Below are positions 1-14,100 of a DNA stretch of 33,377 nt, in pieces. The translations under genes were made by a program, and so were the position numbers. The DNA is from Pseudomonadota bacterium. Its GTDB lineage: Bacteria > Myxococcota_A > Polyangia > DRWM01. How positions within the stretch are numbered: position 1 is the stretch's first letter; every line of letters begins with the position of its first letter. Location: contig JBDRLK010000353.1 of the NCBI GenBank assembly GCA_043813155.1, forward strand, positions 1 through 33,377, read 5' to 3'. Below the pieces are notes generated by a model. That model searched no databases, was not told the origin of the DNA, and was given only the letters and a program-made list of their open reading frames with translations.

Positions 1-82
1 TCATTCCCATGTGAAGGGAAAGAAGCAGAAGCAGGATCGCTCCCGTGATCATGAGAAGAAGCCAGCGGTACGAATCTTTCAT
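1..82 (-). CDS. small hydrophobic membrane protein, truncated by the window edge (possible SdhD-like anchor subunit)
   Basis: ATG at 82..80, 8 nt downstream of GGAGG (reverse complement of 91..95). Translation MKDSYRWLLLMITGAILLLLLSLHMG is a TM helix. It lies directly downstream of the cytochrome b subunit gene on the same strand. Confidence 0.4.
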   Translation of the reverse strand, partial: MKDSYRWLLLMITGAILLLLLSLHMGM

Positions 83-94
83 TTCATTGACCTC

Positions 95-553
95 CTAACG
101 AAGGTGGAAAAATTCCACGACGGACAGACCTATCATCATGGCCCCGGCCAGCATGAGAAGATAGAGAAACGGCCGCTGGGCCTTGATCGACGTCTTGTAC
201 GGGTACGTCGGCCGCGTGGGCTTGCCGATGAAAAACCCGAACTCGATGAAGAGCAGGCGAAACCCGTTGACGGCGTGGTAGAGGAAAGCGAGGAGGAGCA
301 GGAACTCGAGCACCTTGGCAAAGGGCGTTGTCATCCTCGCCATGAGGGCGTCCCAGGTCTCCTGTCCCTTGACCCTCTCGCCCACAACGAAGATGTGCAG
401 CGTCAGGTATGCAATGAGAGCCAGCCCGGTGATGCGGTGAAAGAGGTAGGCATAGCGCTCGATCCAGTACCTGCCGCCGTAAATCCAGCCGCCCATGCCG
501 AGCCTGCCCGGCGGCTTCCTGGGCAAAGTTTTTTTGTCGGTTTTCGATGCCAT
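95..553 (-). CDS. sdhC: succinate dehydrogenase/fumarate reductase cytochrome b membrane anchor subunit
   Basis: 152 aa with three hydrophobic helices and His in helix contexts (LFHRITG, LYHAVNG) typical of heme b anchors. It sits downstream of the flavoprotein gene on the same strand. Confidence 0.7.
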   Translation of the reverse strand: MASKTDKKTLPRKPPGRLGMGGWIYGGRYWIERYAYLFHRITGLALIAYLTLHIFVVGERVKGQETWDALMARMTTPFAKVLEFLLLLAFLYHAVNGFRLLFIEFGFFIGKPTRPTYPYKTSIKAQRPFLYLLMLAGAMMIGLSVVEFFHLR

Positions 554-576
554 CGCTTTTCTCCGTTACAAAATCC

Positions 577-636
577 GGGGTAGGGGAGGCTTTAGCCTCC
601 CATCCTGTTTTCGGGCGACTGAAGTCGCCCCTACCC
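577..636. repeat. REP-like compound hairpin element
   Basis: Two hairpins, GGGAGGC-TTTA-GCCTCCC (584..601) and GGGCGAC-TGAA-GTCGCCC, are enclosed by outer arms GGGGTAGGGG / CCCCTACCC. The element fills the sdhA-sdhC gap. Confidence 0.7.
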
Positions 637-659
637 ACATTATGCGACCGGGACGATTA

Positions 660-2408
660 TCAGTATTTGCGCTCCACGGGTTTCCACGTCGTTATGGTGA
701 CGGGCTTGCTGTCAAACCTGATGCCCTTCTCCTCGCGGAAGGCCAGGGTGTGCCTGAGCCACTTCTCGTCGTCCCTTTCCGGAAAATCCCTCCTGGCGTG
801 GCCGCCCCTGCTCTCCTCGCGCAGGATCGCGCCCTTGACCACGATCTCGGCGATCTCGAGCATGAAGTCGATCTCCAGGACATTCATGAGGTTCGTGTTG
901 TACACCCTTGACTTGTCCTTGACCGATATGTTCATGAACCTTCCCTGGAGCGCCTTGATTTTTTCGTCGGCCTGCTTCAGCTCCTCGCCGGTCCTGAACA
1001 CGCCCACGAGGCCGTCCATGGCCTCGCGCATTTCCCTGCGGATCATGTAGGGGTTCTCGTCGCCGTCCCGGCCGAGGATGTCGTCGTAGATCCTCTTTTT
1101 CTCATTCTCGATCATCGCAGCGGGAGCCTCGGGGATTTTCACCGTTTCGAGCGCGTACGTGGCGGTCTCAAGGCCCGTGATCATCCCCCATGCAAGGCAT
1201 TCGGCCGTGGAATTGGACCCCAGCCTGTTCGCGCCGTGCAGGCTCGAACACTGCGCTTCGCCGGCCGCCCAGATGCCCTTGACCGGGGTTTTCCCGTTGA
1301 TGTCCGTTTCGATGCCGCCCATCATGTAATGCTCGACCGGCCGCACGGGAATCGGCTCCTCGATGGGGTCGATGCCGTTGAACTTGATGCACACTTCCCT
1401 GATCAGCGGCAGCCGCTCGTTGATTTTTCCGGCGCCCAGGTGCCGCAGGTCCAGGTGCACGTAGTCCAGGCCCGCCGGCCCCTTGAAGCCGCGGCCCGCC
1501 TCGATCTCGGTCATTTCCGCCCTCGATATGATGTCCCTGGGCGCGAGCTCCATCTTCGAAGAGGCGTAGTTTTCCATGAAACGCTCGCCCTTGCTGTTGA
1601 GCAAGTGGCCGCCCTCGCCCCTGGTCGCTTCCGTGATCAGGATGCCCGACGGCACGAGACCGGTGGGGTGAAACTGGATGAACTCCATGTCCTCCAGCGC
1701 AATGCCGGCCCTGAAGGCCATGCCCAGCCCGTCGCCCGTGACCGAATGCGAGTAGGTCGTGAAACCGTAGATCCTCCCGCCGCCGCCGGTCGCCAGGATC
1801 AGCGCTTTTGCCCGAAACACGCAGAAGCGGCCCGTTGACATCTCGATGGCGCAGAGGCCGCGAAGCTCGCCGTCCTCCACGAGGATGGCCGTGGCGAAAT
1901 ACTCGTCGTAGCGGTGGATGTCCGGGTACTTGAGGATCGTGTCGTACAGGCACGACATCTCGAAAAACCCGGTCTTGTCCGCGGCGAACGTTGCCCTGGG
2001 ATAGGAATGGCCCCCGAAGGGCCGCTGGGCGATCCGGCCGTCCCCGGTCCTGGACCAGGGCAGGCCCCAGTGCTCGAGCTGCATGATTTCCCCGGGCATG
2101 GCCTCGACGAATTTTCTCACCACGTCCTGGTCGGCCAGAAAGTCAGATCCCTTGATCGTGTCCCATGCGTGAAGCTCGAAGGAGTCGCCCTGCTCCGGCC
2201 GCAGCATTGCGGCCGTGCCGCCTTCAGCCGCGACCGAGTGCGAGCGCATGAGCTGAAGCTTGGACACGATCCCGATCGAGAGCTTTCCCTCCGAGGTTTT
2301 CGCGGCCTCGATGCCCGCCCTCAGCCCCGCGAGGCCCGACCCGAGTATCAGGATATCATGCTCAATCGTTTCAACCATATCCTCTCCAAAAGCTTTGTGA
2401 TGTGTCAA
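660..2408 (-). CDS. sdhA: succinate dehydrogenase/fumarate reductase flavoprotein subunit
   Basis: 582 aa. N-terminal dinucleotide fold ILILGSGLAGLRAG, covalent-FAD histidine context RSHSVAAEGG, FHPTG, TEATRGEGG, and LAPRDIISRA catalytic-region motifs. Confidence 0.93.
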   Translation of the reverse strand: MTHHKAFGEDMVETIEHDILILGSGLAGLRAGIEAAKTSEGKLSIGIVSKLQLMRSHSVAAEGGTAAMLRPEQGDSFELHAWDTIKGSDFLADQDVVRKFVEAMPGEIMQLEHWGLPWSRTGDGRIAQRPFGGHSYPRATFAADKTGFFEMSCLYDTILKYPDIHRYDEYFATAILVEDGELRGLCAIEMSTGRFCVFRAKALILATGGGGRIYGFTTYSHSVTGDGLGMAFRAGIALEDMEFIQFHPTGLVPSGILITEATRGEGGHLLNSKGERFMENYASSKMELAPRDIISRAEMTEIEAGRGFKGPAGLDYVHLDLRHLGAGKINERLPLIREVCIKFNGIDPIEEPIPVRPVEHYMMGGIETDINGKTPVKGIWAAGEAQCSSLHGANRLGSNSTAECLAWGMITGLETATYALETVKIPEAPAAMIENEKKRIYDDILGRDGDENPYMIRREMREAMDGLVGVFRTGEELKQADEKIKALQGRFMNISVKDKSRVYNTNLMNVLEIDFMLEIAEIVVKGAILREESRGGHARRDFPERDDEKWLRHTLAFREEKGIRFDSKPVTITTWKPVERKY

Positions 2409-2547
2409 TAAATCTCAGAATGCACGGATGAATTTATATAGCAAGAGAAGTTTTTTTAAAAGCGGAAATATCAACGAACTTGCGATATCAGACAATTTTA
2501 AATTAATTCTTGCATATCGGTGTGATTCAATTTAATAGTGGAGCACT

Positions 2548-3051
2548 ATGGCAAAAAAAGAATTCAAGTTTGAAGAGAAATTCGACGTGCCCAGGGAAAA
2601 GCTCATTGAATTCATACTGGACACGGGGAACGCGGAGGCCCGCGCCGTCGAGTTCGGCAAAGCCCTGGAGGCGAAGGCGACCAGGGAGGATATCGGGGAC
2701 GGGAGGGCCAGGATCGTCGTGAGGTCCAAGGAGTACGGCCGCGGCATGGACGGCAGGAAGGACATGACCAAGACGCAGAGCTCCACGTTCATCGAGGAGT
2801 GGGACCTGGAGCGATACGAGGCAACCTGGTCCTACGCCATGGAGTCGACCTTCGCCGACAAGATCATGGTGGGAGGCAACAAGAAGCTCGTCGCCACGGG
2901 GGACGGCTCGTGCACCTACAAGGATGATGCCACGATAGAGGTCAAGATTCCCGTCATCGGCGGAATGATCGCGGGCAAGGTCGTTTCATCCATGGAGAGA
3001 AGCACGCCGCGCATGATGGAATGGATGAAGAACAAGCTGAATGAGCGCTAG
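2548..3051 (+). CDS. soluble 167-aa protein, possibly SRPBCC/START-like (DUF2505-like)
   Basis: ORF with GGAG 5 nt upstream of the ATG and coding-like composition. The fold assignment is only a loose resemblance to SRPBCC proteins and is not verified. Confidence 0.45.
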   Translation: MAKKEFKFEEKFDVPREKLIEFILDTGNAEARAVEFGKALEAKATREDIGDGRARIVVRSKEYGRGMDGRKDMTKTQSSTFIEEWDLERYEATWSYAMESTFADKIMVGGNKKLVATGDGSCTYKDDATIEVKIPVIGGMIAGKVVSSMERSTPRMMEWMKNKLNER

Positions 3052-3287
3052 CCTGGAGTTTCGCCATTTTTCTACTGCGACCGGCTCAGGCCGGCCGGCA
3101 CTGCGTTGGACGGCCATTTTTTTCCTCGACGTACGCGAGGCGGGGTCCCTGCGGAAGCAAAAAATCGTTCCAGACGATATGGCTTCCGTGGGGTGCGAAA
3201 TACGCCTGCGTCAAAAATGGCCGTCCGCCTTGCGGCGCCTCGGCCTGATCTCGGTCTCGCTACGAAAAAATGACGAAACTCCAGGCT
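3050..3287. mobile_element. 238-bp MITE-like or structured-RNA element with 22-bp terminal inverted repeats
   Basis: 3050..3071 (AGCCTGGAGTTTCGCCATTTTT) pairs with 3266..3287 (AAAAATGACGAAACTCCAGGCT), 21/22. Nested perfect 14-bp IR GGACGGCCATTTTT (3108..3121) / AAAAATGGCCGTCC (3213..3226). Inner hairpins CCGGC-TCAG-GCCGG, CCTCG-N7-CGAGG and ATCGT-TCCAG-ACGAT. The element fills the whole intergenic gap. Confidence 0.55.
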
Positions 3288-3294
3288 TACGACC

Positions 3295-3885
3295 ATGAGC
3301 GCCGGCGATGAGATCACCCATATCCTTTCGACGCCTCCCCCGAGGCCTTTGAAGGCCGTCACAAGGGGCCCGGCCTTCATAAAGGCGGTCGCCTACCTGG
3401 CCGTAGCCGTTGTTTCCATCATCGTCGGGCTCGTTGATCTGTGGTATTACCTGTTCGCCCATTACCGCGAGCCCATTCTGGGCAACGAGATTCTCATGCT
3501 TTCCTATATTGTTTTCATCCTGTCCATCGGCGGGTTTGTTTTCTTCTGGTCCACGAGCTTCATGAACATATACTCGATTTACCTGTTCAGGAAAGGAAAC
3601 CTCAGGCCCGCGCGGGTCGAGAAGGCCACCATGCAGGAAAAGTCCGGGCGGGCAATGTTTGTCGTGAACTGGGCTGTCGAGGAAGAAGGAAAGACAATCA
3701 AGGGCGCCATTTCGACTGCGGTCCCGGACATTGCGAATTTCCGGCAGGACGTGGCCGGGGGGGATACCATGTTCCTGCTCTCGTCGGGCAAAGATCTTGG
3801 AGACGCCATGCCCGTGGGGATGATGGGACTGAAGAGGACTGGCTGCTGTTCCCGTCGCTTGCCGTTCCTTTTCGCTTCAGCGTAA
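3295..3885 (+). CDS. hypothetical membrane protein (2 TM helices plus soluble C-terminal domain)
   Basis: 196 aa. Hydrophobic helices VAYLAVAVVSIIVGLVDLWYYLF and LMLSYIVFILSIGGFVFFW are followed by a charged soluble region. First ATG of the ORF, with a weak SD. Confidence 0.6.
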   Translation: MSAGDEITHILSTPPPRPLKAVTRGPAFIKAVAYLAVAVVSIIVGLVDLWYYLFAHYREPILGNEILMLSYIVFILSIGGFVFFWSTSFMNIYSIYLFRKGNLRPARVEKATMQEKSGRAMFVVNWAVEEEGKTIKGAISTAVPDIANFRQDVAGGDTMFLLSSGKDLGDAMPVGMMGLKRTGCCSRRLPFLFASA

Positions 3886-3935
3886 CGAGGGGGCTATCCA
3901 TTGCCTGGGCCCTGGTCTGCGCCTCCATTGCCGTG

Positions 3936-4382
3936 ATGGGCTTTACGAGCAGCCATTTCATCAATGAAAAGGTGCCCATGAAATTCGTCATTATTTCGTC
4001 CGGGGCGAGCCTGATTGCCGCCCTGGTGTTCTGGCTGGCGAGCAGGCGGGTCATGGCATGGTTCCGGCCCTCGTGGTACATGTGGACGGCGGGAATCTTT
4101 GTTTTCTCCTATTTCATGGTCCTTGGAGGGATCCGGGGACTGAACATGTGGCTGGACAAAGGCAAGCCGCACATTTATAAAACGCAGATCCTTCACCTGG
4201 ACGATTCTATTTTTCCCCAGCTTCAACGTTACGTGTACGTTCGCTCATGGAGGGAGGGCCGGGTAAAGGAAAAGATTCCCATATCCATGAGAACAGGGCA
4301 AGGCATGTCCCCCGGTGACGATGTTACGGTCGAAGTGCAGGACGGCTACTTCGACATGCCCGCAATAACCGGCCTGCGTTGA
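3936..4382 (+). CDS. hypothetical membrane protein (2 TM helices plus soluble C-terminal domain)
   Basis: Only the 3' part of ORF 3441..4382 looks coding (FVIISSGASLIAALVFWLA, WTAGIFVFSYFMVLGG, then a charged domain). ATG 3936 is the first ATG past the stop of the upstream gene. GTG 3933 is possible, so the start is uncertain. Confidence 0.5.
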   Translation: MGFTSSHFINEKVPMKFVIISSGASLIAALVFWLASRRVMAWFRPSWYMWTAGIFVFSYFMVLGGIRGLNMWLDKGKPHIYKTQILHLDDSIFPQLQRYVYVRSWREGRVKEKIPISMRTGQGMSPGDDVTVEVQDGYFDMPAITGLR

Positions 4383-4386
4383 AAAG

Positions 4387-4425
4387 GGCGCATGAAGAAA
4401 ACATGCGCACCGCAGCGCCGTTTTT
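4387..4425 (+). terminator. possible intrinsic terminator or protein-binding inverted repeat
   Basis: GCGCATG-N7-CATGCGC (4388..4394 / 4402..4408) is nested in GGCGC...GCGCC and followed by a T5 run at 4421..4425, just after the stop at 4382. Confidence 0.3.
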
Positions 4426-4517
4426 AGACGACAGGCGAGCCGGGAAGCTCACCCGGGTGCATGAAAACCGTATTCACCTGCTTGACCTGAAGCTGATTTT
4501 CCGGCCTGATTACGGAT

Positions 4518-4533
4518 TGGCATTAATTTTGCT
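4518..4533 (+). promoter_or_regulatory. sigma54-type (-24/-12) promoter
   Basis: TGGCAT-TAATT-TTGCT has GG-N10-GC spacing and matches the TGGCAC-N5-TTGCW consensus. It lies about 40 nt upstream of the ATG at 4572. Confidence 0.6.
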
Positions 4534-4571
4534 TTATCGCGAAGCGGAAAAACAGGGAGGACAGAACATCC

Positions 4572-5342
4572 ATGACCGTAAAAGGAGAAGTCCTTTTAAT
4601 TGACCGCGAGGACAGCGGGATCGAGGCGCATGCCGTTGCGCTGTCCAAAGCGGGGCACAGCGTGTCCTGCACGTTCAACGGCAAAGAGGCCATCAAGAAA
4701 CTATCCGAGCACACCGTCGACCTCGTTGTGTCGGACACCGGTCTGCCCGACACCGACGGCATCCTGCTCTTGAGATCGATCAAGGACATTTCAAAGGATA
4801 TATATGTTGTCCTGATGGGCGAATGGCCGACCATCGAATTCACGAAAACGGCCATGAGCATCGGGGCGTACGACGTGCTCTGCAAGCCCGTGGAGCCGGA
4901 AAAGCTGTGCAGGGTGGTGCAGTCCGTGATTGCCGCGCGCCGGTACCGGCTTTCACAGATTGCCCGGGACCCGGCAACGAGAGGCGAGAAGCCTTCGCCC
5001 GAATGCACCTATGACGACCAGGGGCTGTGGTCCCGCACGCTGCCTAATGGAACCGTTGAGATCGGAATGTCGGCGAGCGGCTGGGTGGCCAGCGGGAAAA
5101 TGGTGTACATCACGCTTCCCGAGGAAGGCGCGGTAGTAAAGGAATGCGATCTTCTTTTCGAGATTGTTTCGAGCTATGGAAAAATCGGACAGGTTCACAG
5201 GGTCCTGTCGCCTTTGAGCGGAACGGTGATCGAGGTGAACGAGAATTTCAATGCCGAGCTCGTCAGGGCTGTCTGCGACCCCTGCGGCGGCCGGTGCTGG
5301 CAGACCCCGATTTTGAAAATAACGGTGGGGGCCGGGCCTTGA
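4572..5342 (+). CDS. response-regulator receiver domain fused to a GcvH-like (lipoyl/hybrid-barrel) domain
   Basis: N-terminus: REC motifs LLIDRED, VVSD(55)TGLPDTDG and LCKP. C-terminus aligns with glycine-cleavage H protein (GTVEIGMS...VYITLPEEGAVV...SPLSGTVIEVNENFN), but the ESVKA lipoyl-lysine context is not conserved. SD GGGAGG lies upstream. Confidence 0.8.
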   Translation: MTVKGEVLLIDREDSGIEAHAVALSKAGHSVSCTFNGKEAIKKLSEHTVDLVVSDTGLPDTDGILLLRSIKDISKDIYVVLMGEWPTIEFTKTAMSIGAYDVLCKPVEPEKLCRVVQSVIAARRYRLSQIARDPATRGEKPSPECTYDDQGLWSRTLPNGTVEIGMSASGWVASGKMVYITLPEEGAVVKECDLLFEIVSSYGKIGQVHRVLSPLSGTVIEVNENFNAELVRAVCDPCGGRCWQTPILKITVGAGP

Positions 5343-5452
5343 ATCTTGAATTTTGACATGGTTTGTTATGAACTTTTTTCATAGCGGACTTTGAGGTATG
5401 AAAATAATTCATAGAAAATACACGGAAAATTCAAGATTCAAGGCCCGGCCCC
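5328..5452. repeat. 125-bp element bounded by a perfect 27-bp inverted repeat
   Basis: GGGGCCGGGCCTTGAATCTTGAATTTT (5328..5354) is the exact reverse complement of 5426..5452. The left arm overlaps the last codons and stop of the upstream CDS. The interior is AT-rich. Confidence 0.75.
5353..5413 (+). promoter_or_regulatory. candidate regulated promoter: TTGACA hexamer plus two TATGAA-N5-TTCATA palindromes
   Basis: TTGACA at 5353..5358. 17-bp palindromes TATGAActtttTTCATA (5367..5383) and TATGAAaataaTTCATA (5397..5413) have centres 30 bp apart. They lie 56-100 nt upstream of the REC-NuoE start. No convincing -10 was identified. Confidence 0.4.
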
Positions 5453-5468
5453 AACAAGGAGGTTTAAA

Positions 5469-6407
5469 ATGCAACCACAGGTACTAATCGTTGATGACCA
5501 GCTGTCAGTCGTCAAATCCTGGGAGGCCATCCTGTCGGAAACGGGCATTTCCGTCACCGGAACGCGGGATGGAAAGGAAGCCTGGCAGCAGTTCCAGAAA
5601 AAGAAGTTCGACGCGGTTATTACCGATATCAGGATGCCGGGCATGGACGGGATCGAGCTTTTGGAAAAGATCAAGAAAGCCGACAGGAAGGTCGAGGTCA
5701 TCGTGCTGACGGGCTACGGCTCAAAGGAGAATGTTACAAGGGCAACGGACCTTGGAGCCTACGATTTCATTTTAAAGCCTGTTTCACCGCGCGACATGGT
5801 CAACACGACCATCGGGGCGCTCGGCCGGAGGGGCTTTGAACGCAGCAGGTTCAAGCCCAGATGGCAGTGGCTCGTGCGGCCGGCCGACGTGGCCGCGAAA
5901 ATGAAGGCGGAGCTGGAGAAGGCCGAAAGCAGGCCCGCGCCTGAAATCCCGAAGGAGCACTTCGAGAAGCTCGATGAGATCATAGCAAAGTGGCGGGGCA
6001 AGCCTGGATGCCTGATCCCTGCGCTCCAGGAAGCCCAGGGCCTCATCGGGTATCTTCCGCCTGAAATCCAGAAGATCATCGCGGCGGGTCTCGATCTGCC
6101 GGCCAGCGAGGTGTTCAGCGTGGTGACCTTCTATGCCTTCTTCACCCTGAAGCCGCGAGGCAAGTTCAACATCAGGGTGTGTCTCGGCACGGCGTGCTAC
6201 GTGAAGGGAGGCAGAGATATCGTGGGCAAGATAAGAGAGGGCATGGGCATCGGCATCGGTGACATTACCGACGACATGAAATTCTCCCTCGAGGCCGTCC
6301 GGTGCCTCGGCGCCTGCGGCCTTGCGCCTACCCTGACCGTGGGCCAGGACGTTCACGGCAGGATCAACCCGGCCAAGACCATGGAGATATTCAAGCAGTA
6401 TGAGTAA
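5469..6407 (+). CDS. response-regulator receiver domain fused to NuoE/HydC-type thioredoxin-like [2Fe-2S] subunit
   Basis: REC: LIVDD(9,10), VITD(53)IRMPGMDG, VLTGYG, ILKP. C-terminal half: NuoE motifs IPALQEAQ, CLGTAC (Cx4C) and CLGACGLAP (Cx3C). SD AAGGAGG lies upstream. Confidence 0.9.
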   Translation: MQPQVLIVDDQLSVVKSWEAILSETGISVTGTRDGKEAWQQFQKKKFDAVITDIRMPGMDGIELLEKIKKADRKVEVIVLTGYGSKENVTRATDLGAYDFILKPVSPRDMVNTTIGALGRRGFERSRFKPRWQWLVRPADVAAKMKAELEKAESRPAPEIPKEHFEKLDEIIAKWRGKPGCLIPALQEAQGLIGYLPPEIQKIIAAGLDLPASEVFSVVTFYAFFTLKPRGKFNIRVCLGTACYVKGGRDIVGKIREGMGIGIGDITDDMKFSLEAVRCLGACGLAPTLTVGQDVHGRINPAKTMEIFKQYE

Positions 6408-6455
6408 CGGCGGCGTGGCAACATTGTCCCCGGGGCCGGCCCCAAAGGAGGCGCA

Positions 6456-6842
6456 ATGAAACTCAAAGACGTGATCGCGGAAATCGAGGGGAAAATGCTG
6501 TGCGGCGAGGAGCTGCTTTCTGCAGACATCGAGACGGTCATGGCATCGGACATGATGAGCGATGTCCTGAGGTACTCGAAACCGGGCTCCATTCTCGTCA
6601 CGGGCAACAAGAACGTCCAGGCCGTGCGAACCGTGCTCATCGCGGAGCTGCGCGGCGCGATCCTGATCAGGAACAAGGCCCCGGCAAGGGAAATCCTGGA
6701 GCTTGCGCAGGAGAACGGGATTTTCATCGCCCTGACCGGGCTGGACATGTTCGAGGTGTGCGGCAGGCTGTACGAGAGAATGAAAGCAGCGCCGCCGCAA
6801 ACAAAAAAGGAGGATCAATCCGGCAGCAGGGCGGAAGTGTAG
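6456..6842 (+). CDS. DRTGG domain protein (copy 1)
   Basis: 128 aa and a clear paralog of 8654..9004 (shared ASDMMSDV, GRLY). This is the architecture of small DRTGG proteins found next to hydrogenase-like sensor genes. SD AGGAGG. Confidence 0.75.
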   Translation: MKLKDVIAEIEGKMLCGEELLSADIETVMASDMMSDVLRYSKPGSILVTGNKNVQAVRTVLIAELRGAILIRNKAPAREILELAQENGIFIALTGLDMFEVCGRLYERMKAAPPQTKKEDQSGSRAEV

Positions 6843-6861
6843 AGGGGGGCCGGGCGCTGCG

Positions 6862-7398
6862 ATGAGGGATATTTACGTATTCGAACAGAAGTTTCCGATA
6901 ACGGGCGGAGATTTTACCAATGCGGGCATGGCGTCCGTGGAGGTGAAATCCATACTGAAAAAAACGGGAATCGATTCGAAGAATGTCAGGAGGATATCCA
7001 TCGCGGTCTATGAAGCGGAGATGAACGTCGTTCTGTACTCACGGCAAGGAGTGCTGACGCTGCTCGTGACGCCGGAGAGCGTTTTCATTGTTTTCCAGGA
7101 CGAGGGGGAGGGCATCGAGGATATCGCCATGGCCATGAGAGAGGGCTTTACCACGTCGGACGAGAAAATACGGGAGCTGGGCTTCGGAAGCGGCATGGGG
7201 CTTCCCAACATCAAGGGGAATGCCGACTACTTGAAAATCACCTCCACCATGAAGAAAGGAACGACGCTGGAGATGGGGTTCGACCTGACGGGGAGGATTT
7301 CGGAGTCCGATAAAGAGGAGACCAGGACGAGGTACGACATGGAAAACGATATCAACATGTATCTTTGGAAAAAGAAGGGGTACGTAGAGAAGACATGA
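6862..7398 (+). CDS. anti-sigma-factor-like Ser/Thr protein kinase (RsbW/SpoIIAB-type GHKL ATPase)
   Basis: 178 aa. Bergerat-fold boxes EAEMNVV (N), DEGEGI (G1) and GFGSGMGL (G2). No DHp/H-box. Confidence 0.75.
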   Translation: MRDIYVFEQKFPITGGDFTNAGMASVEVKSILKKTGIDSKNVRRISIAVYEAEMNVVLYSRQGVLTLLVTPESVFIVFQDEGEGIEDIAMAMREGFTTSDEKIRELGFGSGMGLPNIKGNADYLKITSTMKKGTTLEMGFDLTGRISESDKEETRTRYDMENDINMYLWKKKGYVEKT

Positions 7399-8657
7399 TC
7401 TCATTGCGAATAGACGCTGACAAGTGCAACGGGTGCGTGAAGTGCATGCACGCCTGCCCCACCAGGGCGTTGAGGGTGAGAGATGGAACAGCGGTTATTC
7501 TGGACGATTATTGCATCGACTGCGGCGAGTGCGTCACGGCGTGCGAGAAGAACGCGATCGTTCCCCTCATCGATACGTTCGAGGACTTTTTTCAGAAGTT
7601 CAAGTTCAAGATCGCGCTGCCGTCCCCCGTGCTGTATTCCCAGTTCGGCGGCACTGTTCAGCCCAACGACATTCTCGCGGCCATACGAAGCCTGGGTTTC
7701 GGCTGCGTCGTGGACGAGGCCTACATCTGCGAGATGGTCAGCTCCGTGATCAAGCACTACGCGGACAAGAACAAGTCCGGCTTCCCCTATATTTCGTCGA
7801 TGTGCCCCGTTGTCACGCGGCTGATCCAGATGAGATTTCACGACCTGATCCACGCCATCATCCCGCTCCAGTCCCCGAGGGAGATCACGGCCCAGGAGCT
7901 CAAGCGAAAGTACTCGAAAAAGCTGGGCCTTCCGGAAGAGGACATAGGCGTGCTCTACATAACGCCCTGCTCGGCGAAGATCAACGCGATCAAGGACCCG
8001 CCTGCGAGGAAGAAGTCCACCATCGACGCCGCCATGGCGATCAAGGACATGTACATGCGGATCGCCAACAAGCTGTTCACGATCAGGGACAGTATCACTG
8101 AAGATGACGAGATGTACATGAGGGCGAGCGGGCTCGGCATCAGCTGGGGCATGGTAGGAGGGGAGATAGCCAATTTCGACCACAGCGAGTGCATCGCGGT
8201 TTCCGGCATAAGGGACGTCATCAAGATCCTCGAGGACATAGACAGGGGAAGGTTTTCCAACCTGCGCTACCTGGAATTGAGGGCATGCAGGGAAGGGTGC
8301 CTGGGCGGCAACCTGAACGTGGAGGACCGCTACGTGGCGAGAATGAACCTGATACGGCTGGTGGACATGTTCGGCAGTACTCCCAAGTTCGACAGGGAAA
8401 AGCTGATGCGGACCCACCAGAGCTACTTCTCCTTTGAAAAAGAGCCTTCTCCCATCAGGGAGACCGAGGCTCCCCTCAACCGCAGGAGGGACACGGCCAT
8501 TGAAATGCTCAACAGGGTCATCGAGATCCACGGCAGCCTGAAACAGATCGACTGCGGGGCCTGCGGCTCGCCGGACTGCGCGACATTCGCGGAAGACGTT
8601 GTCCGGGAATACTCCACGCTGGACCAGTGTGTTTTCATCGGGAGGGACAAGAAATGA
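7395..8657 (+). CDS. [FeFe]-hydrogenase-like protein, sensory (HydS-like) type without PAS domain
   Basis: N-terminal 2x[4Fe-4S] ferredoxin motifs CNGCVKCMHACP and CIDCGECVTACE. H-domain motifs SSMCP (for TSCCP), TPCSAK (for MPCxxK) and ELRACREGCLGG (for ExMxCxxGCxxG). C-terminal CGACGSPDC-x16-C. The start was chosen at the ATGA overlap with the upstream stop. ATG 7365 is an alternative. Confidence 0.85.
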   Translation: MISLRIDADKCNGCVKCMHACPTRALRVRDGTAVILDDYCIDCGECVTACEKNAIVPLIDTFEDFFQKFKFKIALPSPVLYSQFGGTVQPNDILAAIRSLGFGCVVDEAYICEMVSSVIKHYADKNKSGFPYISSMCPVVTRLIQMRFHDLIHAIIPLQSPREITAQELKRKYSKKLGLPEEDIGVLYITPCSAKINAIKDPPARKKSTIDAAMAIKDMYMRIANKLFTIRDSITEDDEMYMRASGLGISWGMVGGEIANFDHSECIAVSGIRDVIKILEDIDRGRFSNLRYLELRACREGCLGGNLNVEDRYVARMNLIRLVDMFGSTPKFDREKLMRTHQSYFSFEKEPSPIRETEAPLNRRRDTAIEMLNRVIEIHGSLKQIDCGACGSPDCATFAEDVVREYSTLDQCVFIGRDKK

Positions 8658-9004
8658 AACTTCGTGAAATAATTGAAAAGCTTGATTTCAAGGTGGTCAA
8701 CGAATCCGACAACATGGACGTGAACATCAGGCGCGGGTATGCAAGCGACATGCTCAGCGATGTCATTGCCAACGTCGGGGCCGATGATGTCTGGATCACC
8801 ATCCAGGCCCACCAGAACATCGTGGCCGTGGCCGTGCTCAAGGGAGTCGCGGCGATCATCATAGCGAACAAGAGGAATATCAACCAGGAAACGATCGCAA
8901 AGGCTAAGAGTGAAAACGTGGCCCTCATGCTCAGCGAGTTGCCGGTTTTCGAGATCGCTGGAAGGCTGTACGACATGGGGATCAGGGGGATCACGGAGCA
9001 ATGA
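8654..9004 (+). CDS. DRTGG domain protein (copy 2)
   Basis: 116 aa from ATG 8654 (ATGA overlap with the upstream stop). Paralog of 6456..6842. Confidence 0.75.
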   Translation: MKLREIIEKLDFKVVNESDNMDVNIRRGYASDMLSDVIANVGADDVWITIQAHQNIVAVAVLKGVAAIIIANKRNINQETIAKAKSENVALMLSELPVFEIAGRLYDMGIRGITEQ

Positions 9005-9777
9005 GCGCATTGCGGGAGTTCAGGGCGGACCTGCACGTCCATTCCTGCCTCTCGCCCTGTGCGGACATATTCATGACGCCCGCGAGGATAGCGAAGCGCG
9101 CCCGGGAGGCCGGATTGGACATGGTCGCCATCTGCGACCACAATTCCGCGGAGAACGCTCCCTACGGCGTGAAGGCCTGCGAGAGGTTGGAAGGGCTGAG
9201 CTTCCTGCCCGGCCTGGAAATCACGTCGGTGGAGGAAGTTCACGTCGTGGCGCTTTTCGCAGGCATCGCTGGCGCGCTGAAAATGCAGCGGGTTGTTTAC
9301 GACAAGCTGACGAAGGCGCCCAACGACAGCGACATGTACGGCGACCAGATCATCGTAAACGAGGACGACGAGGTGGAGGGCTTCAACGGCAGGTTGCTGA
9401 TCGGCTCCGTGGACATTGATTTGAAATCCCTGGTGGATCAGATTCACCGGCTGGACGGCATCGCCATTGCCGCGCACATAGACAAGACGTCGTTCGGGGT
9501 CGTGGGCCAGCTCGGGTTTATCCCCGAGGACGTTGACTTCGACGCTGTCGAGCTGTCCAGGTACGTGACGGACCGCAGCGAGGACTGGGAGCGGGAGGCG
9601 CAGAACAATTATTTCATGGGCCGCAGGTTTCCGATCCTGTTTTCCTCGGACGCCCACAGGCTCGAGGAAGTGGGAAAGCGAAGAACGATGTTTTTACTGA
9701 AATCGCCCGGGTTCGAGGAAATCAGGATGGCGCTCAAGGAGGTCGGCGGAAGAAAAGTACAGGCCCGGGAGACCTGA
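9001..9777 (+). CDS. PHP-family phosphoesterase
   Basis: 258 aa. PHP metal-ligand motifs DLHVHS, CDHNS, GLEITS, AAHIDK and SSDAH. ATGA overlap with the upstream gene. Confidence 0.85.
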   Translation: MSALREFRADLHVHSCLSPCADIFMTPARIAKRAREAGLDMVAICDHNSAENAPYGVKACERLEGLSFLPGLEITSVEEVHVVALFAGIAGALKMQRVVYDKLTKAPNDSDMYGDQIIVNEDDEVEGFNGRLLIGSVDIDLKSLVDQIHRLDGIAIAAHIDKTSFGVVGQLGFIPEDVDFDAVELSRYVTDRSEDWEREAQNNYFMGRRFPILFSSDAHRLEEVGKRRTMFLLKSPGFEEIRMALKEVGGRKVQARET

Positions 9778-9791
9778 AGGCTTCCGGCTCA

Positions 9792-9847
9792 GGGGCAGGG
9801 GAGGCTTTAGCCTCCCGGTTCAAGGGTAGGGGAGGCTTTAGCCTCCC
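9792..9847. repeat. two tandem REP-like hairpins
   Basis: GGGGAGGC-TTTA-GCCTCCC at 9798..9816 and again at 9829..9847 (the second preceded by GGGTA). Confidence 0.75.
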
Positions 9848-9864
9848 GTAAACAAAAAAGTCAA

Positions 9865-10416
9865 ATGGAAGATCTGTCGCTGCACATACTCGATATCATG
9901 CAGAATTCCGCGGAGCATGGCGCGGACACAATCGTTCTGCGAATCGAGGAGAACGCGGGCGACGACTTGCTCACGATCTCGATCCTGGACAATGGATCGG
10001 GAATGGACGAGAGCGCGGCGGCCAGGGTGACCGACCCGTTCTACACGTCCAAGGACAAGAGGGTCGGGCTCGGCGTCCCCCTGTTCAAGCAGGCGGCGCT
10101 GGCCGCGGGAGGCAGCTTCTCGATCGACTCGCAGGCCGGGAAGGGAACCGTGATCGAGGCGAGCTTCGACTATTCGAACATAGACCGCCAGCCCCTGGGC
10201 AATGTGGTGGACACGGTGATTTCCATACTCATCGCCTATCCCCATCTGCGGATTGTCTATACCCATGTGAAGGACGGGCAGGAGGCGGCCTTTGATTCCG
10301 AAGATTTCATGGAGCGCGCGGCAACGGCCGAGGGCGGGACCGCGGAGTACGCCGTGCTCTCCCTGATGAAAGGGGAATGGGAAAGCAGGCTCGGCGAAAT
10401 AGGCGCCGGCGAATAA
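9865..10416 (+). CDS. stand-alone GHKL (histidine-kinase-like) ATPase domain protein
   Basis: 183 aa. ILDIMQNSAEHGA (N box), LDNGSGMDE (G1), RVGLGVPLF (G2). No DHp/H-box or sensor domain. This resembles the small ATPase found between nuoE- and nuoF-like genes of bifurcating hydrogenase operons. Confidence 0.75.
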   Translation: MEDLSLHILDIMQNSAEHGADTIVLRIEENAGDDLLTISILDNGSGMDESAAARVTDPFYTSKDKRVGLGVPLFKQAALAAGGSFSIDSQAGKGTVIEASFDYSNIDRQPLGNVVDTVISILIAYPHLRIVYTHVKDGQEAAFDSEDFMERAATAEGGTAEYAVLSLMKGEWESRLGEIGAGE

Positions 10417-10428
10417 TGCCCCGCCGGG

Positions 10429-10480
10429 CAGGGGAGCCTTCAGGCTCCCCTGCTTCGGGAGGCTAAAGCCTCCCCTACCC
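10429..10480. repeat. REP-like hairpin pair
   Basis: CAGGGGAGCC-TTCA-GGCTCCCCTG (10429..10452) and GGGAGG-CTAAAG-CCTCCC (10457..10474, the inverted orientation of the CTTTAG type), followed by CTACCC. Confidence 0.75.
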
Positions 10481-10511
10481 CCAAGGGGCTATAAACCACG
10501 GAGGACCAATA

Positions 10512-10898
10512 ATGGCGAAATTGAAGATTGACGACCTCGACAGGATCAAGAAAAAAATGAAGGGTCAGATCCAGATCAGGGAGGGTGAGCACAGGGTGAA
10601 ATTGACCATCCACATGGGAACCTGCGGCATTGCCGCGGGCGCGCGCCCCCTCATGACGAGGATGCTCAAGGAGCTTTCAGACCGCAACATCACCGATGTT
10701 CGCCTCACGAGCTCGGGGTGCGCGGGGCTGTGCAGCCAGGAGCCCATGGCCACGGTCGAGATCAAGGGAGAGGCGCCGGTGAAGTACATCTCCCTCGACG
10801 AGGATAAAATGGTGGAAATCCTGGAGAAGCATGTTATCGGCGGCCGGATCGTGGAAAAGCACATGCTGGCCATGGGCAGCGAAAAAGTCCACGTGTAA
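10512..10898 (+). CDS. small thioredoxin-like [2Fe-2S] ferredoxin-domain protein
   Basis: 128 aa. HMGTCGIAAGA and SSGCAGLCSQEP motifs typical of the Trx-like ferredoxins encoded in HydABC-type operons. Only three Cys are present (C38, C70, C74). Confidence 0.8.
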   Translation: MAKLKIDDLDRIKKKMKGQIQIREGEHRVKLTIHMGTCGIAAGARPLMTRMLKELSDRNITDVRLTSSGCAGLCSQEPMATVEIKGEAPVKYISLDEDKMVEILEKHVIGGRIVEKHMLAMGSEKVHV

Positions 10899-10915
10899 CT
10901 TATATCTTGAATGGT

Positions 10916-11167
10916 GTGCGGGGCTTTAGCCCCGCCGAAGCGGCCCTGAAGGGCCGCACTGCGGAACGGAATGTTGGTGTGCGGGGCTTTAGCCCCGCCG
11001 AAGCGGCCCAGAAGGGCCGCACTGCGGAACGGAATGTTGTAGTGCGGGGCTTTAGCCCCGCCGAAGCGGCCCAGAAGGGCCGCACTACGGAACGGAATGG
11101 TGTAGTGCGGGGCTTTAGCCCCGCCGAAGCGGCCCTGAAGGGCCGCACTACGGCACCGAATTTAGTG
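10916..11167. repeat. 4 x 63-bp tandem repeat, each unit a double hairpin
   Basis: Units start at 10916, 10979, 11042 and 11105. Each carries GCGGGGC-TTTA-GCCCCGC and GCGGCCC-TGAA-GGGCCGC within GTGCGG...CCGCAC. A few substitutions separate the units. Confidence 0.9.
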
Positions 11168-11197
11168 AAGAGCCAGCATTTCAAGGAGGACCAGAAA

Positions 11198-14100
11198 ATG
11201 CCGGAAGCAAAGTACAGGATAGAATGTCTCGTATGCGCGGGAACCAGCTGCGTCGCCGGGGGCTCGTTCGAGCTGAAAGGGGTGCTCGAAGAGTCGATCA
11301 AAAAATTCGAGCTCCGGGACGAGGTGAGGGTCACCACGACGGGGTGCAACGGGTTCTGCGCCGCGGGCCCGATCATCAGGGTCATGCCCGACGACGTGTT
11401 TTACCAGTTCGTCACCCCCGGGGACGTGGACAAGTTCGTGGAGGAGCATTTCATCAAGGGCAGGGTTTACAAGCCGCTGCTCTACGAGGAGGACGAGACC
11501 AGGCAGAAAGTCCCGATCATGAGCGACATCGGGTTCTTCAAGCACCAGACGCTGATCGTTCTTCGCAACAGGGGGCTGATCGATCCGGAGGTCATCGACG
11601 AATATATCGGCAGGGACGGGTACAGGGCCGTGGCCAAGGCGCTCACGCAGATGACGCCCGAGGACATCAGGGCGGAGATGAAGAAATCCGGCCTCAGGGG
11701 AAGGGGAGGAGCCGGCTTCCCCACGGCGCTGAAGTGGGAGTTCTGCGCCAAGGCGCAGGGCGATATCAAGTACATGCTCTGCAACGCGGACGAGGGAGAC
11801 CCCGGCGCGTTCATGGACCGCAGCGTGCTGGAAAGCGACCCCCACGCCGTTCTCGAGGGAATGACCATCGGCGCAAAGGCCATCGGCTCTTCGGAGGGCT
11901 ACATCTACGTGAGGGCGGAGTACCCGCTCGCGATCAAGAGGCTGCAGATCGCCATCAGGCAGGCGCTGGATTACGGCCTGCTCGGCGACAACATCCTGGA
12001 CACGGGCTTCAACTTCCACCTCGACCTGTACTTCGGCGCCGGCGCTTTTGTCTGCGGCGAGGAGACGGCCCTCATGCGCTCCATCGAGGGCAAGCGGGGA
12101 ACGCCGCGGCCCAGGCCGCCCTTCCCGGCGCACAAGGGGTTGTGGGACAGGCCGTCCGTCCTCAACAACGTGGAAACGCTGGCCAACGTCCCGCAGATCA
12201 TTCAGAACGGCGGTGACTGGTACGCGAGCCTTGGGACCGAGCGAAGCAAGGGCACCAAGGTCTTCGCCCTGTCGGGCGCGGTCCAGAACATCGGCCTGGT
12301 GGAAATCCCCATGGGCGCGTCCATACGCACGCTGGTCTATGACATCGGCGGCGGCGCCAAGGCGGGCAAGCAGGTCAAGGCCATCCAGATGGGCGGGCCG
12401 TCGGGCGGGTGCATTCCCGAGAAAATATTCGACACGCAGATCGACTACGAGGAGATACAGAAGACCGGAGCCATCATGGGCTCGGGCGGCGTGGTGGTCA
12501 TGGACGACACCACCTGCATGGTCGACCTGGCCAGGTTTTTCCTTGACTTCACTTCCGAGGAGTCCTGCGGCAAGTGCGTGCCCTGCAGGATCGGGACCAA
12601 GGTCATGCTCGATGTGCTGGACAAGATCATCGCGGGCAACGGCGAGATGGAAGACCTCGACAAGCTGGAAGACCTTGGCAGGGACATTGCCGCGGCAAGC
12701 CTTTGCGGCCTTGGCCAGACGGCGCCCAATCCCGTCCTTTCCACGCTCAGGTACTACAGGCACGAATACGAGGCCCACGTCAAGGAGCAGTACTGCCCGG
12801 CGGGCAAGTGCAAGCGCCTGTCGCCCACGCCTTGCCAGGCCGCCTGCCCCATCGGGTCGGACATCTCGAGCTACGTGTCGCTCATCGGGCACGGGCGGTA
12901 CAATGACGCGCTGCAGGTCATTCTCGAGGATAACCCGCTGCCCGCGTCCCTGGGCAGGATCTGCGTTCACAAGTGCGAGGAAGGCTGCAGGCGGGCGGAG
13001 GTCGACACGCCCGTCTCCATCTGCGCCCTGAAGAGGGTCGCGGTGGACAAGGTTCCCGGCTACGTGGACGACGTCGAGCCCTGCGCCATAAGGTTCGACG
13101 AGAAAGTCGCCATCGTGGGCGCGGGCCCGGCGGGCGTCGCGGCGGCCTACGACCTGGTCCGCTACGGGTACGGCGTGACGATTTTCGACATGCTGAAGAA
13201 GGGCGGGGGCATGCTCAGGGCCGGGATTCCAGAATACAGGCTTCCGAGAAAGACCCTCGATGCCGAGCTGGGGAGGCTCGTGAAGATGGGCGTAAAATTC
13301 GAGTTCGGTAAAAAACTGGGCAAGGATTTTTCGCTGGGCAGCCTGCGCAAGCAGGGGTTCAAGGCGATCTTCATGGGCATCGGCGCCTACAAGGGAATGA
13401 AACTGCGGCTGGAGGGAGAGGACGAGGCCGGGGGGATTACGGACTGCATCGAGTTTCTCATGGAAAACAATCTCAAGGGCCACAAGAAGGCGGGCGACAA
13501 GGTGCTCGTCATCGGGGGCGGCAACGCGGCCATGGATGCCGCCCGCGTCTCCATACGCGTGGGCAGCGACGTGCGCCTGCTGTACCGCAGGACGCGCAAG
13601 GAGATGCCGGCGAACCCGGCCGAGATCGAGGCCGCCATCGAGGAAGGCGTGAACATGGAGCTGCTGGTGCAGCCCGTGGCGCTGCTCACGTCGAGCGGCA
13701 GGGTAAAGGGCCTCAAGTGCATCCGCAACGAGCTGGGCGAGCCGGACAAGAGCGGCAGGCGCAGGCCCGTGGCCATCGAGGGCAGCGAGTTCGACGTGGA
13801 GGCGGACGCCATCATCACGGCCATCGGGCAGTCTCCCGACCTGAGCTTCATCGGCAGCGGCTCGGGAGAGTTCGAGCTCAGCAGGTGGGGCACGATCAAG
13901 GTCGACCCCGATACCATGCAGACGAGCCAGAAGGACGTGTTCGCGGCCGGTGACGCGGTGACGGGCCCGGCCAGCGCCGTCGAAGCCATGGGAGGGGGAA
14001 GGCAGGCGGCTCACTCCATCCACTGCTTCCTGAGGGGCTTGCCCTTTGGCGTGTACAAGCATGCCAAGCCCATGAAGTTCCCGGAGCGTGTTCCGGTCAG

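Follow-up and report, generated by a model that had tools for sequence, protein, structure and literature searches.

Introduction

Bfu/HydABC-type enzymes set the balance between NADH, NADPH, ferredoxin and H2 in anaerobes. To our knowledge, their regulation has so far been treated either as transcriptional or as a matter of poorly understood HydS modules, and we know of no described system in which a HydS module is tied to a HydC with a receiver. Response regulators with an output other than DNA binding include CheB, PleD, RssB, CpdR and PorX, in all of which a canonical N-terminal receiver is followed by a linker and an effector. Here we describe a gene of the same layout on contig JBDRLK010000353.1 of a Pseudomonadota bacterium (assembly GCA_043813155.1), which encodes a receiver (REC) domain joined to a NuoE-type [2Fe-2S] module and is referred to as REC-NuoE; the whole stretch of DNA that was analysed, 33,377 nucleotides, is referred to as the window. 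Unlike in the response regulators named above, the output of REC-NuoE is neither a signalling enzyme nor an adaptor but a cluster-carrying subunit of a redox enzyme. Judged by its sequence, REC-NuoE belongs to both the receiver and the NuoE/HydC/BfuC families, with all sequence-level features that define the two families present.

Among PDB sequences, the NuoE half matched C subunits of bifurcating enzymes best, with complex I NuoE far behind: NiFe-HydABCSL 7t2r_C (2.7e-46), HydABC 8a6t_C, 7q4v_C and 7p5h_C, NfnC 9n5u_C, and StnA 8oh5_A. HydC, the C subunit of NiFe-HydABCSL, NfnC and StnA have the NuoE fold, the four [2Fe-2S] ligands and HydB-type NuoF and NuoG-like partners in common with REC-NuoE, and identity to Bfu C subunits reaches up to about 50% over residues 165–311. 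In contrast, the solved or characterised Bfu C subunits are receiver-less proteins of 150–190 residues, and REC-NuoE has about 165 extra residues at its N-terminus. StnABC and NfnABC possess the same inventory of modules as the complex predicted from the window, including a dead FdhF-like domain (PMC10482914, PMC11829005, PMC12018979), which in StnC was described as catalytically inactive (PMC10482914). However, in these enzymes the GltD module lies inside the NuoG-like A/C subunit and BfuB keeps a C-terminal 2x[4Fe-4S] domain, whereas in the window GltD is located on the C-terminus of BfuB.

The closest precedent for a receiver in an enzyme of this kind is MSMEG_2064/Rv3143 of mycobacterial complex I, which is, as here, a receiver that forms part of an NADH-oxidising Nuo-type complex (PMC10068793, PMC9274095). 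The acceptor Asp of this orphan response regulator lies buried in the interface; the receiver has been proposed to control activity or assembly by way of phosphorylation, which would prevent its association with the complex (PMC10068793, PMC9274095). The mycobacterial receiver is a separate protein that sits near the membrane arm, where it binds mainly NuoB and also touches NuoA, NuoC and NuoI, whereas the receiver of the window is covalently attached to NuoE within the NADH-input module of a soluble-type complex. HydS/HfsB modules (PMC5707799; group C3, PMC11406978) have the H-cluster motifs, the kinase and phosphatase neighbours and the Bfu operon in common with the window. The HydS/HfsB proteins of PMC5707799 contain a PAS domain, whereas no PAS domain was found in the HydS-like protein of the window (7395..8657). 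The literature searched for a receiver-NuoE/HydC fusion, including papers on the Bfu family, contained no description of one.

A receiver domain and a NuoE-type module in one reading frame

The REC-NuoE gene (5469..6407, + strand) starts with an ATG that is preceded by an AAGGAGG ribosome-binding site and continues for 312 codons without interruption. Pfam analysis placed Response_reg (PF00072) at residues 5–112 (E = 6.5e-32, 110 bits at a cutoff of 30) and 2Fe-2S_thioredx (PF01257) at residues 169–311 (E = 7.8e-45, 153 bits at a cutoff of 25), the latter as a full-length match that covers profile positions 2–144 of 145. The active-site quintet of the receiver is complete, comprising the acidic pair D9/D10, the phospho-acceptor D53, T81 and K103, and the cluster ligands occur as C238-x4-C243 and C279-x3-C283 (Cx4C ... 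Cx3C). In alignments of 21 and 120 homologues no variation occurred at D9, D10, D53, T81, K103-P104 and the four cysteines. The aromatic switch position (F100, three residues before the Lys) is nearly always occupied by Phe or Tyr, with His or Ile in 2 of 14 representatives. Between the two domains lies a linker of about 45 residues (about residues 121–165) that is enriched in Arg, Lys and Glu; about 27 of its residues are an insertion peculiar to the clade of the window and appear as an alignment gap in homologues from Nitrospirota. Thus, the canonical receiver residues, the complete NuoE-type module with Cx4C and Cx3C motifs and the linker rich in Arg, Lys and Glu, all of which had been described in an earlier note on this DNA, were borne out by the analysis.

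To obtain a structural view, an AlphaFold2 model of REC-NuoE was built with the 120-sequence alignment. The receiver was modelled with a predicted local distance difference test score (pLDDT) of mostly >90 per 10-residue block and has a (beta-alpha)5 fold of five strand-helix units. The NuoE part, mostly at pLDDT 80–95, consists of helices (162–222) and a beta-alpha-beta domain (233–309). The linker reached a pLDDT of 52–60 and the overall predicted template modelling score (pTM) was 0.52, indicating two folded domains on a flexible tether that adopt no fixed inter-domain pose. In Foldseek searches the receiver half matched the CheY-like structure 3crn_B (TM 0.94) and the other half matched NuoE/HydC/FdsG subunits; no solved structure holding both a receiver and a NuoE module was found by this search. 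The receivers of PorX and NtrC1 were among the matches to the REC-NuoE receiver in PDB, NCBIfam and Foldseek searches.

The fusion recurs in independent assemblies

The REC-NuoE fusion is real and recurrent and is no assembly chimera. A fused open reading frame (ORF) with 92% identity to the protein of the window is present on an ENA contig (L086), and a second contig from the same sample (L093) carries a further 312-amino-acid (aa) REC+NuoE ORF whose identity was not measured. Two Logan runs (L087, L088) likewise yielded fused ORFs at 73% identity, and JGI and ENA contigs of up to 229 kb (L081, L082) yielded them at 57%. Among the best 120 clusters at 90% identity, 119 contain both Pfam domains, at lengths of 282–316 aa; organism names on these clusters, where given, are usually Thermodesulfovibrionales, Dissulfurispiraceae, Nitrospirae or Candidatus Sulfobium. 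The earlier note had allowed for a misassembly and for a frameshift between the two halves. Neither accounts for the gene, as the ORF is continuous in other genomes, in 119/120 clusters and on independent contigs. That two adjacent genes were merged by an artefact of assembly or gene calling might be suspected from the window itself, which has one or more frameshifted genes and, immediately upstream of REC-NuoE, an insertion that resembles a mobile element. However, the same continuous ORF is found at 43–92% identity in many assemblies from independent sequencing projects, with its length and linker conserved, and 13 of the 150 best-scoring representatives at 50% identity are fusions; recurrence thus refutes an artefact, to which we attach practically no probability.

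The search of the 50%-identity representatives was exhaustive, and in each of the 13 fusions among the best 150 the receiver is N-terminal. Across lineages, 40 to 115 residues separate the equivalents of K103 and P179, an interval that includes the linker. The residues of the phospho-site are retained in 12 of 14 divergent representatives and the four cysteines in all 14. The two deviating proteins are P0126, whose receiver is degenerate (N10, Y53, A103), and P0128, which has Glu at the phospho-acceptor position (E53) as a natural 'phosphomimetic'; both keep the four Cys ligands. In a neighbour-joining tree of the NuoE halves, calculated without support values, the fusions were scattered over several groups, which hints at more than one origin of the fusion. 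The contig scan, which used patterns of the NuoE half, returned at least three full-length fusions and is not a taxon census. Automatic annotations name REC-NuoE proteins 'NAD(P)H-dependent oxidoreductase subunit E' or 'NuoE / CheY-like'.

The operon of the window and the predicted partner enzyme

From 4572 to 16959 all genes of the window are located on the + strand and are closely spaced (Table 1). A six-frame scan of the 33-kb window revealed one NuoE module and two receivers; as there is only one NuoE module, REC-NuoE must be the C subunit of the complex. This agrees with the proposal of the earlier note that the output domain is an electron-transfer subunit, since REC-NuoE is the sole NuoE-type gene in the window and NuoF- and NuoG-like partners are encoded in the same operon. 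The identity of the partner that had been guessed was not upheld: it is neither a respiratory complex I nor a hydrogenase but a Bfu-type soluble complex with a NuoF-GltD fusion and a dead NuoG/FdhF-like subunit.

Table 1. Features of the REC-NuoE operon in the window and of selected genes in related loci
Feature	Position	Strand	Details
REC + GcvH-like protein, 256 aa	4572..5342	+	Response_reg 7-116 (2.5e-19), GCV_H 147-228 (1.7e-9)
REC-NuoE fusion gene	5469..6407	+	312 aa, one intact ORF
Receiver (REC) domain	5481..5804	+	residues 5-112; PF00072
Flexible linker with one short helix at 139-152	5829..5951	+	about residues 121-161
NuoE/HydC/BfuC-type thioredoxin-like [2Fe-2S] module	5973..6401	+	residues 169-311; PF01257
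DRTGG-domain protein, 128 aa, first gene of the inserted block	6456..6842	+	PF07085, 6.6e-10
SpoIIAB/RsbW-like Ser-kinase-type ATPase (HATPase_c_2), 178 aa	6862..7398	+	PF13581
HydS-like putative sensory [FeFe]-hydrogenase	7395..8657	+	Fer4 families, Fe_hyd_lg_C 4e-29, PF04060
Second DRTGG-domain protein, 125 aa	8627..9004	+	PF07085 1.8e-4, just below cutoff
PHP-family phosphoesterase, 258 aa	9001..9777	+	Pfam PHP, PHP_C
Stand-alone histidine-kinase-type ATP-binding (CA) protein, 183 aa	9865..10416	+	HATPase_c residues 7-102, 2.7e-14
HydD-like small thioredoxin-like [2Fe-2S] ferredoxin, 128 aa	10512..10898	+	weak PF01257; NCBIfam 2Fe-2S ferredoxin 2.8e-8
BfuB/HydB-type NuoF fused to GltD/NfnB-type module, 1020 aa	11198..14260	+	Pfam, PDB matches
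BfuA, NuoG-like Fe-S subunit with degenerate molybdopterin/FdhF-like domain, 864 aa	14365..16959	+	Pfam, NCBIfam
REC-GcvH-like homologues	L081 9213-9980; L083 9224-9988; L084 9209-9976; L085 9164-9931		upstream of REC-NuoE
Molybdenum-cofactor genes	L083 6211-7194, 17587-18345; L085 299-1773; L084 17994-18749		

The small HydD-like ferredoxin is 51% identical to a 127-aa gene product at the equivalent position in the Nitrospirota locus L001. In BfuB-GltD, Pfam identified Complex1_51K, NADH_4Fe-4S, Fer4_20 and Pyr_redox_2, with PF01257 at the N-terminus. The predicted modules are therefore a thioredoxin-like 2Fe-2S domain, an FMN/NADH site and a [4Fe-4S] cluster, followed by 2x[4Fe-4S], an FAD and an NADPH site. 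The NuoF part matched 7t2r_B at 769 bits (ORF residues 101–638 against chain residues 2 to 539 of 597), and the GltD part matched 9bov_A, 8oh5_C (residues 102–566) and 9n5u_A, with the GltD-like FAD/NADPH module of StnC and NfnA as its counterpart. A longer ORF that results mechanically from the sequence (10907-14260, 1117 aa) was rejected, as its first 97 codons are an intergenic tandem repeat (63 bp x4); the real start at 11198 is preceded by an AAGGAGG site.

As is characteristic of the Bfu family, the BfuB of the window has an N-terminal thioredoxin-like [2Fe-2S] domain beside the NuoF core. Its C-terminal 2x[4Fe-4S] domain (B3/B4), however, is replaced by the Fer4_20 module of GltD, whereas the relatives from Nitrospirota keep it; no CxxCxxCxxxC motif occurs in BfuB-GltD of the window, compared to two in BfuB of L001. 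The B3/B4 ferredoxin domain is conserved in all characterised bifurcating Bfu enzymes (PMC9499530). Because it is missing, the enzyme of the window is not classed as a canonical bifurcating Bfu enzyme. A mere shift of the gene boundary relative to StnB/StnC was considered and rejected: in StnC, GltD is inserted after the 2Fe-2S domain, while here it replaces the ferredoxin domain of BfuB (PMC10482914).

BfuA comprises Fer2_4, NADH-G_4Fe-4S_3, Fer4_Nqo3, Molybdop_Fe4S4, Molybdopterin and Molydop_binding domains according to Pfam. Its molybdopterin domains, and FdsA as the best PDB match, would be in line with a formate dehydrogenase alpha subunit. This assignment was rejected, as the Cys/Sec-His pair is missing and NuoG scores higher: among NCBIfam models NuoG TIGR01973 was best with 395 bits (below its cutoff), compared to 267 bits for Fdh-alpha (cutoff 666). 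The position of Cys386-His387 of Rhodobacter capsulatus FdsA is occupied by Arg-Tyr in BfuA of the window and by Gly-Tyr in the homologues from Nitrospirota. The predicted complex would thus consist of REC-NuoE, the HydD-like ferredoxin, NuoF-GltD and a NuoG-like subunit without catalytic metal site. By homology, which also underlies the substrate specificity, the partner enzyme is probably NAD(H)/NADP(H)-linked and resembles the Stn/NfnABC transhydrogenases.

A second receiver protein and the region upstream of REC-NuoE

The second receiver of the window belongs to the REC-GcvH-like protein, which the earlier note had not mentioned. Of 10 loci that show the gene directly preceding REC-NuoE, 9 have a gene of this type (about 255 aa) at that position, and the exception, L090, has a CBS-domain gene there. 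The pair of genes is present in L081-L087 and L093, and ORFs of equal size lie upstream of REC-NuoE in L001-L003. In the clade of the window, the receiver of this protein has D-R in place of D-D and Met at the position of the conserved Thr. A search for homologues with the REC-GcvH-like protein returned 7 close relatives and did not reach the homologues from Nitrospirota. Lipoylation of the GcvH domain, which would make it a candidate redox substrate for the complex, was considered and rejected, because the canonical position of the lipoyl-lysine is Gly in all five aligned homologues; judging from this residue, the GcvH-like domain is probably not lipoylated.

Between the REC-GcvH-like stop codon and the REC-NuoE start lies a 45-nt inverted repeat (5310-5470). 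It has a perfect 25-nt core, GGCCGGGCCTTGAATCTTGAATTTT, and its arms flank an AT-rich spacer of 71 nt. As RNA, the repeat has a folding energy of -74.6 kcal/mol (z = -9.6), and its 3' arm extends to the ribosome-binding site. In the 92% relative L086 only an 11-nt gap is found at this position, indicating that the window contains an insertion of about 100 nt, similar to a miniature inverted-repeat transposable element (MITE), in a GGCCCGGCC palindrome. The insertion provides the stop codon of the REC-GcvH-like gene and occurs as a single copy in the window.

Further upstream, at 3295-4382, a gene for a protein of 362–365 aa is split over two frames in the window, with the break near 3816-3837. 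The gene has no Pfam match and is located between DUF2505 and REC-GcvH in L081, L086, L087 and L093. The split may be due either to a frameshift, which would make it a pseudogene, or to a sequencing error.

A HydS-like block inserted into the operon

In the window, REC-NuoE is separated from the remaining genes of the operon by a block of six genes (6456-10416). L086 and L087 have the same block, whereas in the sister lineage L081 the core genes are adjacent without it, indicating that the block is an insertion in the sub-lineage of the window. In the unrelated locus L091, genes for HATPase_c_2, DRTGG, PHP and HATPase_c proteins are located directly upstream of REC-NuoE.

The central gene of the block, with its likely start at the ATG at 7395, encodes the HydS-like protein. 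In this protein a 2x[4Fe-4S] domain and an H-cluster domain are combined with a Cys-rich Fe-S motif at the C-terminus, and its translation contains the motifs SSMCP, TPCSAK, ELRACREGCLGG and CGACGSPDC. Hence the features of sensory [FeFe]-hydrogenases are found at 7395-8657, namely the P1-P3 Cys motifs, the C-terminal Fe-S motif and neighbouring HATPase_c_2 and PHP genes. In motif P1 (SSMCP), Met occupies the position of the proton-relay Cys. The SpoIIAB-like protein encoded at 6862..7398 matched the NCBIfam model of anti-sigma F factor, TIGR01925, at 1.4e-14, which is below the cutoff. The CA-domain protein encoded at 9865..10416 has the N, G1, F and G2 boxes in its translation and is without a HisKA/DHp domain; in L091 it is a gene of this type that immediately precedes REC-NuoE. 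A hydrogen-sensing regulatory role is ascribed to HydS/Hfs modules (PMC5707799), and Bfu gene clusters often include sensory hydrogenases of group C3 (PMC11406978). In the organism of the window, a hydrogen or redox input may come from the inserted HydS-like module.

Gene neighbourhoods in relatives

The core operon was found in relatives from independent sources at 43–92% identity. A NuoF-type gene is part of the REC-NuoE operon in the window, in L001-L003, in L081-L085 and in L092, and in most loci with downstream sequence a HydB/NuoF-type gene, seen in five loci plus L092, and a NuoG-like gene follow REC-NuoE, either directly or behind a small ferredoxin gene. The sister lineage L081/L082 has upstream synteny with the window (SdhA, DUF2505 and the gene for 362–365 aa). 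In these two loci REC-GcvH, REC-NuoE, HydD-BfuB-GltD and BfuA are directly adjacent, without a HydS block; in L081 (11005-14172) the HydD-like ferredoxin is fused to the N-terminus of BfuB-GltD, resulting in a triple fusion of 1055 aa. The core of the Nitrospirota loci (L001-L003, L083-L085) consists of a REC-GcvH-like protein, REC-NuoE, a HydD-like protein of 127 aa, BfuB of 620–632 aa, which keeps the ferredoxin domain, and BfuA of 817–821 aa. In L092, REC-NuoE is followed by BfuB. In L090 (4034-9062) a divergent REC-NuoE of 335 aa has a CBS protein on one side and, on the other, a short NuoG-like protein of 553 aa together with a DHODB-type Fe-S flavoprotein subunit. NuoF is missing from the L090 locus, where the same fusion has a different partner set.

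Directly upstream of the core in L001, Pfam identified three more genes, which encode a kinase of HAMP-HisKA-HATPase architecture, a lone receiver of 126 aa and an NtrC-like sigma-54 activator. The first two of them were also called in L084, and L002 and L003 have ORFs that match the sizes of these two. The four receivers of the L001 operon share 38–72% mutual identity and a common 'xxSCxRxL' alpha-1 helix; this similarity is compatible with a single kinase that might serve several of them. A two-component input to REC-NuoE is strongly suggested, and the set of kinase, receiver and NtrC-like activator in Nitrospirota, of which the earlier note made no mention, is the strongest circumstantial evidence for it.

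In L084, the minus strand (36-7079) encodes an ordinary NuoE-NuoF-NuoG set, with a NuoE of 154 aa, beside a nuoA homologue, in divergent orientation to the neighbouring operon for the kinase, the receiver, REC-NuoE, BfuB and BfuA. Minus-strand ORFs of similar size, the sizes alone being compared, are located at this position in L002 (~3860-7074) and L003 (~3657-6988). One idea from this arrangement is that the REC-NuoE operon might be an alternative, regulated NADH-input module in L084. Genes for molybdenum-cofactor proteins (MoaA, MoaC, FdhD and a MoCF_biosynth protein) occur near the Nitrospirota operons. Their proximity to a NuoG-like subunit that lacks the Cys/Sec ligand for Mo may be a coincidence, or else the degenerate domain may still bind a pterin cofactor.

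A proposed phosphorylation switch on a redox-enzyme subunit, weighed against other roles of the receiver

We lean, if narrowly, towards REC-NuoE being the C subunit of a soluble, NuoEFG-like flavin/iron-sulfur complex of the Bfu family in which the phosphorylation state of D53 switches activity, coupling or assembly. The post-translational gating of electron entry or complex assembly put forward in the earlier note is, accordingly, a reasonable hypothesis. The receiver on an enzyme subunit suggests a phosphorylation signal that acts directly on the enzyme and not on its genes; from the architecture, the conservation and the operon context, we infer both that the receiver is phosphorylated and that this controls activity or assembly. 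REC-NuoE would carry the C1 [2Fe-2S] cluster, with the canonical receiver tethered to its N-terminus by the flexible linker of about 45 residues. In StnA, the [2Fe-2S] cluster is required for bifurcation: its deletion abolishes the physiological reactions and spares the NADPH:viologen activity (PMC10482914). Cluster C1 of HydC has likewise been implicated in bifurcation by HydABC (PMC9499530). In NfnABC, the N-terminal domain of NfnC occupies a cleft that is lined by the Fdh-like domain on one side and the NAD(H)-binding Rossmann fold of NfnB on the other, while the C1-bearing C-terminal domain of NfnC and the C-terminal domain of BfuB are mobile and carry the low-potential electron (PMC11829005). 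From this placement of Bfu C subunits, together with the required domain movement, we infer that phosphorylation of D53 would change docking or dimerisation of the receiver. The receiver would be positioned to hinder NAD(H) access or domain movements; alternatively, D53-dependent dimerisation of the receiver could change the oligomeric state. A change of either type would act at the protein level and switch the activity, coupling or assembly of the enzyme.

The HAMP-HisKA-HATPase kinase encoded in the same operon is the likely phosphodonor in Nitrospirota, and it would probably also serve the lone receiver, the NtrC-like factor and the REC-GcvH-like protein in a branched pathway. That two-component signalling directly throttles a Bfu-type, potentially bifurcating enzyme in this way, through a phosphorylated receiver close to the FMN/NAD(H) site and with branches from one kinase to the NtrC-like transcription factor and to REC-NuoE and the REC-GcvH-like protein as two enzyme-associated receivers, is a tentative extension that we hold possible rather than probable. 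The window itself lacks a HisKA kinase gene, so that acetyl phosphate or a kinase encoded elsewhere in the genome was assumed as the donor there. More speculatively, the GltD module at the place of the mobile B3/B4 domain next to C1 may put the cluster of REC-NuoE on the path between the two nucleotide sites.

Several observations weigh against a phosphorylation switch. The AlphaFold2 model contains no confident contact between receiver and NuoE module and no docked inter-domain pose (pTM 0.52). Pfam searches found no HisKA-type kinase in the 33-kb window, the receiver of the neighbouring REC-GcvH-like protein is degenerate in the clade of the window as described above, and the B3/B4 ferredoxin domain is absent from its BfuB. 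In addition, P0126 and P0128 indicate that the receiver can persist without His-Asp chemistry, and these two sequences argue for an additional, phosphorylation-independent and structural component of receiver function.

If that component were the whole of it, the receiver would be a module for structure or oligomerisation that, for example, stabilises dimers or tetramers or constitutively binds the REC-GcvH-like partner. The persistence of P0126, in which the phospho-site is destroyed, and of P0128 with its Glu acceptor would be explained, as would the degenerate receiver of the REC-GcvH-like partner in the clade of the window and the lack of a kinase in the window, and the characterised Bfu enzymes are indeed oligomers (PMC10482914, PMC11829005, PMC9499530). 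However, an active-site quintet that is invariant in the 120 closest homologues and kept in 12 of 14 divergent ones is hard to explain without phospho-chemistry, and the Nitrospirota operon encodes a dedicated kinase, so that we regard a purely structural role as improbable. Signal flow in the reverse direction appears less remote, although still unlikely. The NuoE module would then report the redox state (NADH/NAD+ or reduction of the cluster) to the receiver, which would act as a redox-tuned phosphate sink or competitor and thereby tune the NtrC-like output and transcription instead of enzyme activity. A single kinase with several receivers is a layout typical of phosphate-sink pathways, for example CheY1 in Sinorhizobium. 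The Nitrospirota operon with one kinase and four paralogous receivers, including that of the NtrC-like transcription factor, fits such a role, as does the long flexible tether of the receiver. Against it, the clade of the window has a perfect receiver active site despite the lack of a nearby kinase or NtrC-like gene, and a pure sink needs no fusion to an essential enzyme subunit.

In the organism of the window, the input might instead come, without His-Asp signalling, from the module of HydS-like, SpoIIAB-like, PHP and DRTGG proteins, which would sense H2 or redox state and act on REC-NuoE or the complex through Ser/Thr phosphorylation or partner switching. The position of the block between REC-NuoE and the remaining operon in the window, L086 and L087 points in this direction, as do a similar block directly upstream of REC-NuoE in the unrelated L091, the hydrogen-sensing function ascribed to HydS/Hfs proteins (PMC5707799) and the frequency of C3 hydrogenases in Bfu clusters (PMC11406978). 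However, such modules also occur beside Bfu operons with a receiver-less HydC (PMC11406978), REC-NuoE is found without the block in L081 and in all five Nitrospirota loci examined with full flanks, and no known mechanism connects the proteins of the block to receivers. We give this explanation little credence, slightly less than a purely structural role.

If correct, control of the complex through D53 of REC-NuoE would be the first described post-translational His-Asp switch on an enzyme of the Bfu family, and REC-NuoE would represent the first class of response regulators with a redox-cluster subunit as output domain. A receiver on the subunit with the C1 cluster would offer a concrete handle on switching of Bfu activity or coupling at the protein level. 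It would also extend the outputs of response regulators to a subunit of a redox enzyme and generalise the case of the mycobacterial response regulator in NADH dehydrogenase. The version from Nitrospirota, with its kinase in the same operon, should be tractable for reconstitution.

Other sequence features of the window

Scans of the window for tRNA genes and Rfam families returned no matches. Intergenic tandem repeats occur at 10912-11161 (63 bp x4), 9784-9848 (31 bp x2) and 25094-25169 (36 bp x2). A short GC hairpin whose loop reads CTTTAG, as in GGGGCTTTAGCCCC, is part of each of them, and by their sequence they look like a REP-like (repetitive extragenic palindromic) family. Degenerate tandem repeats of 12, 27, 36 and 48 bp, similar to GGTCGAGGACCC, are located at 20455-20645 within an ORF of 333 aa (20228-21229) without a match in Pfam; their predicted product would be a repeat protein of low complexity and acidic/proline type.

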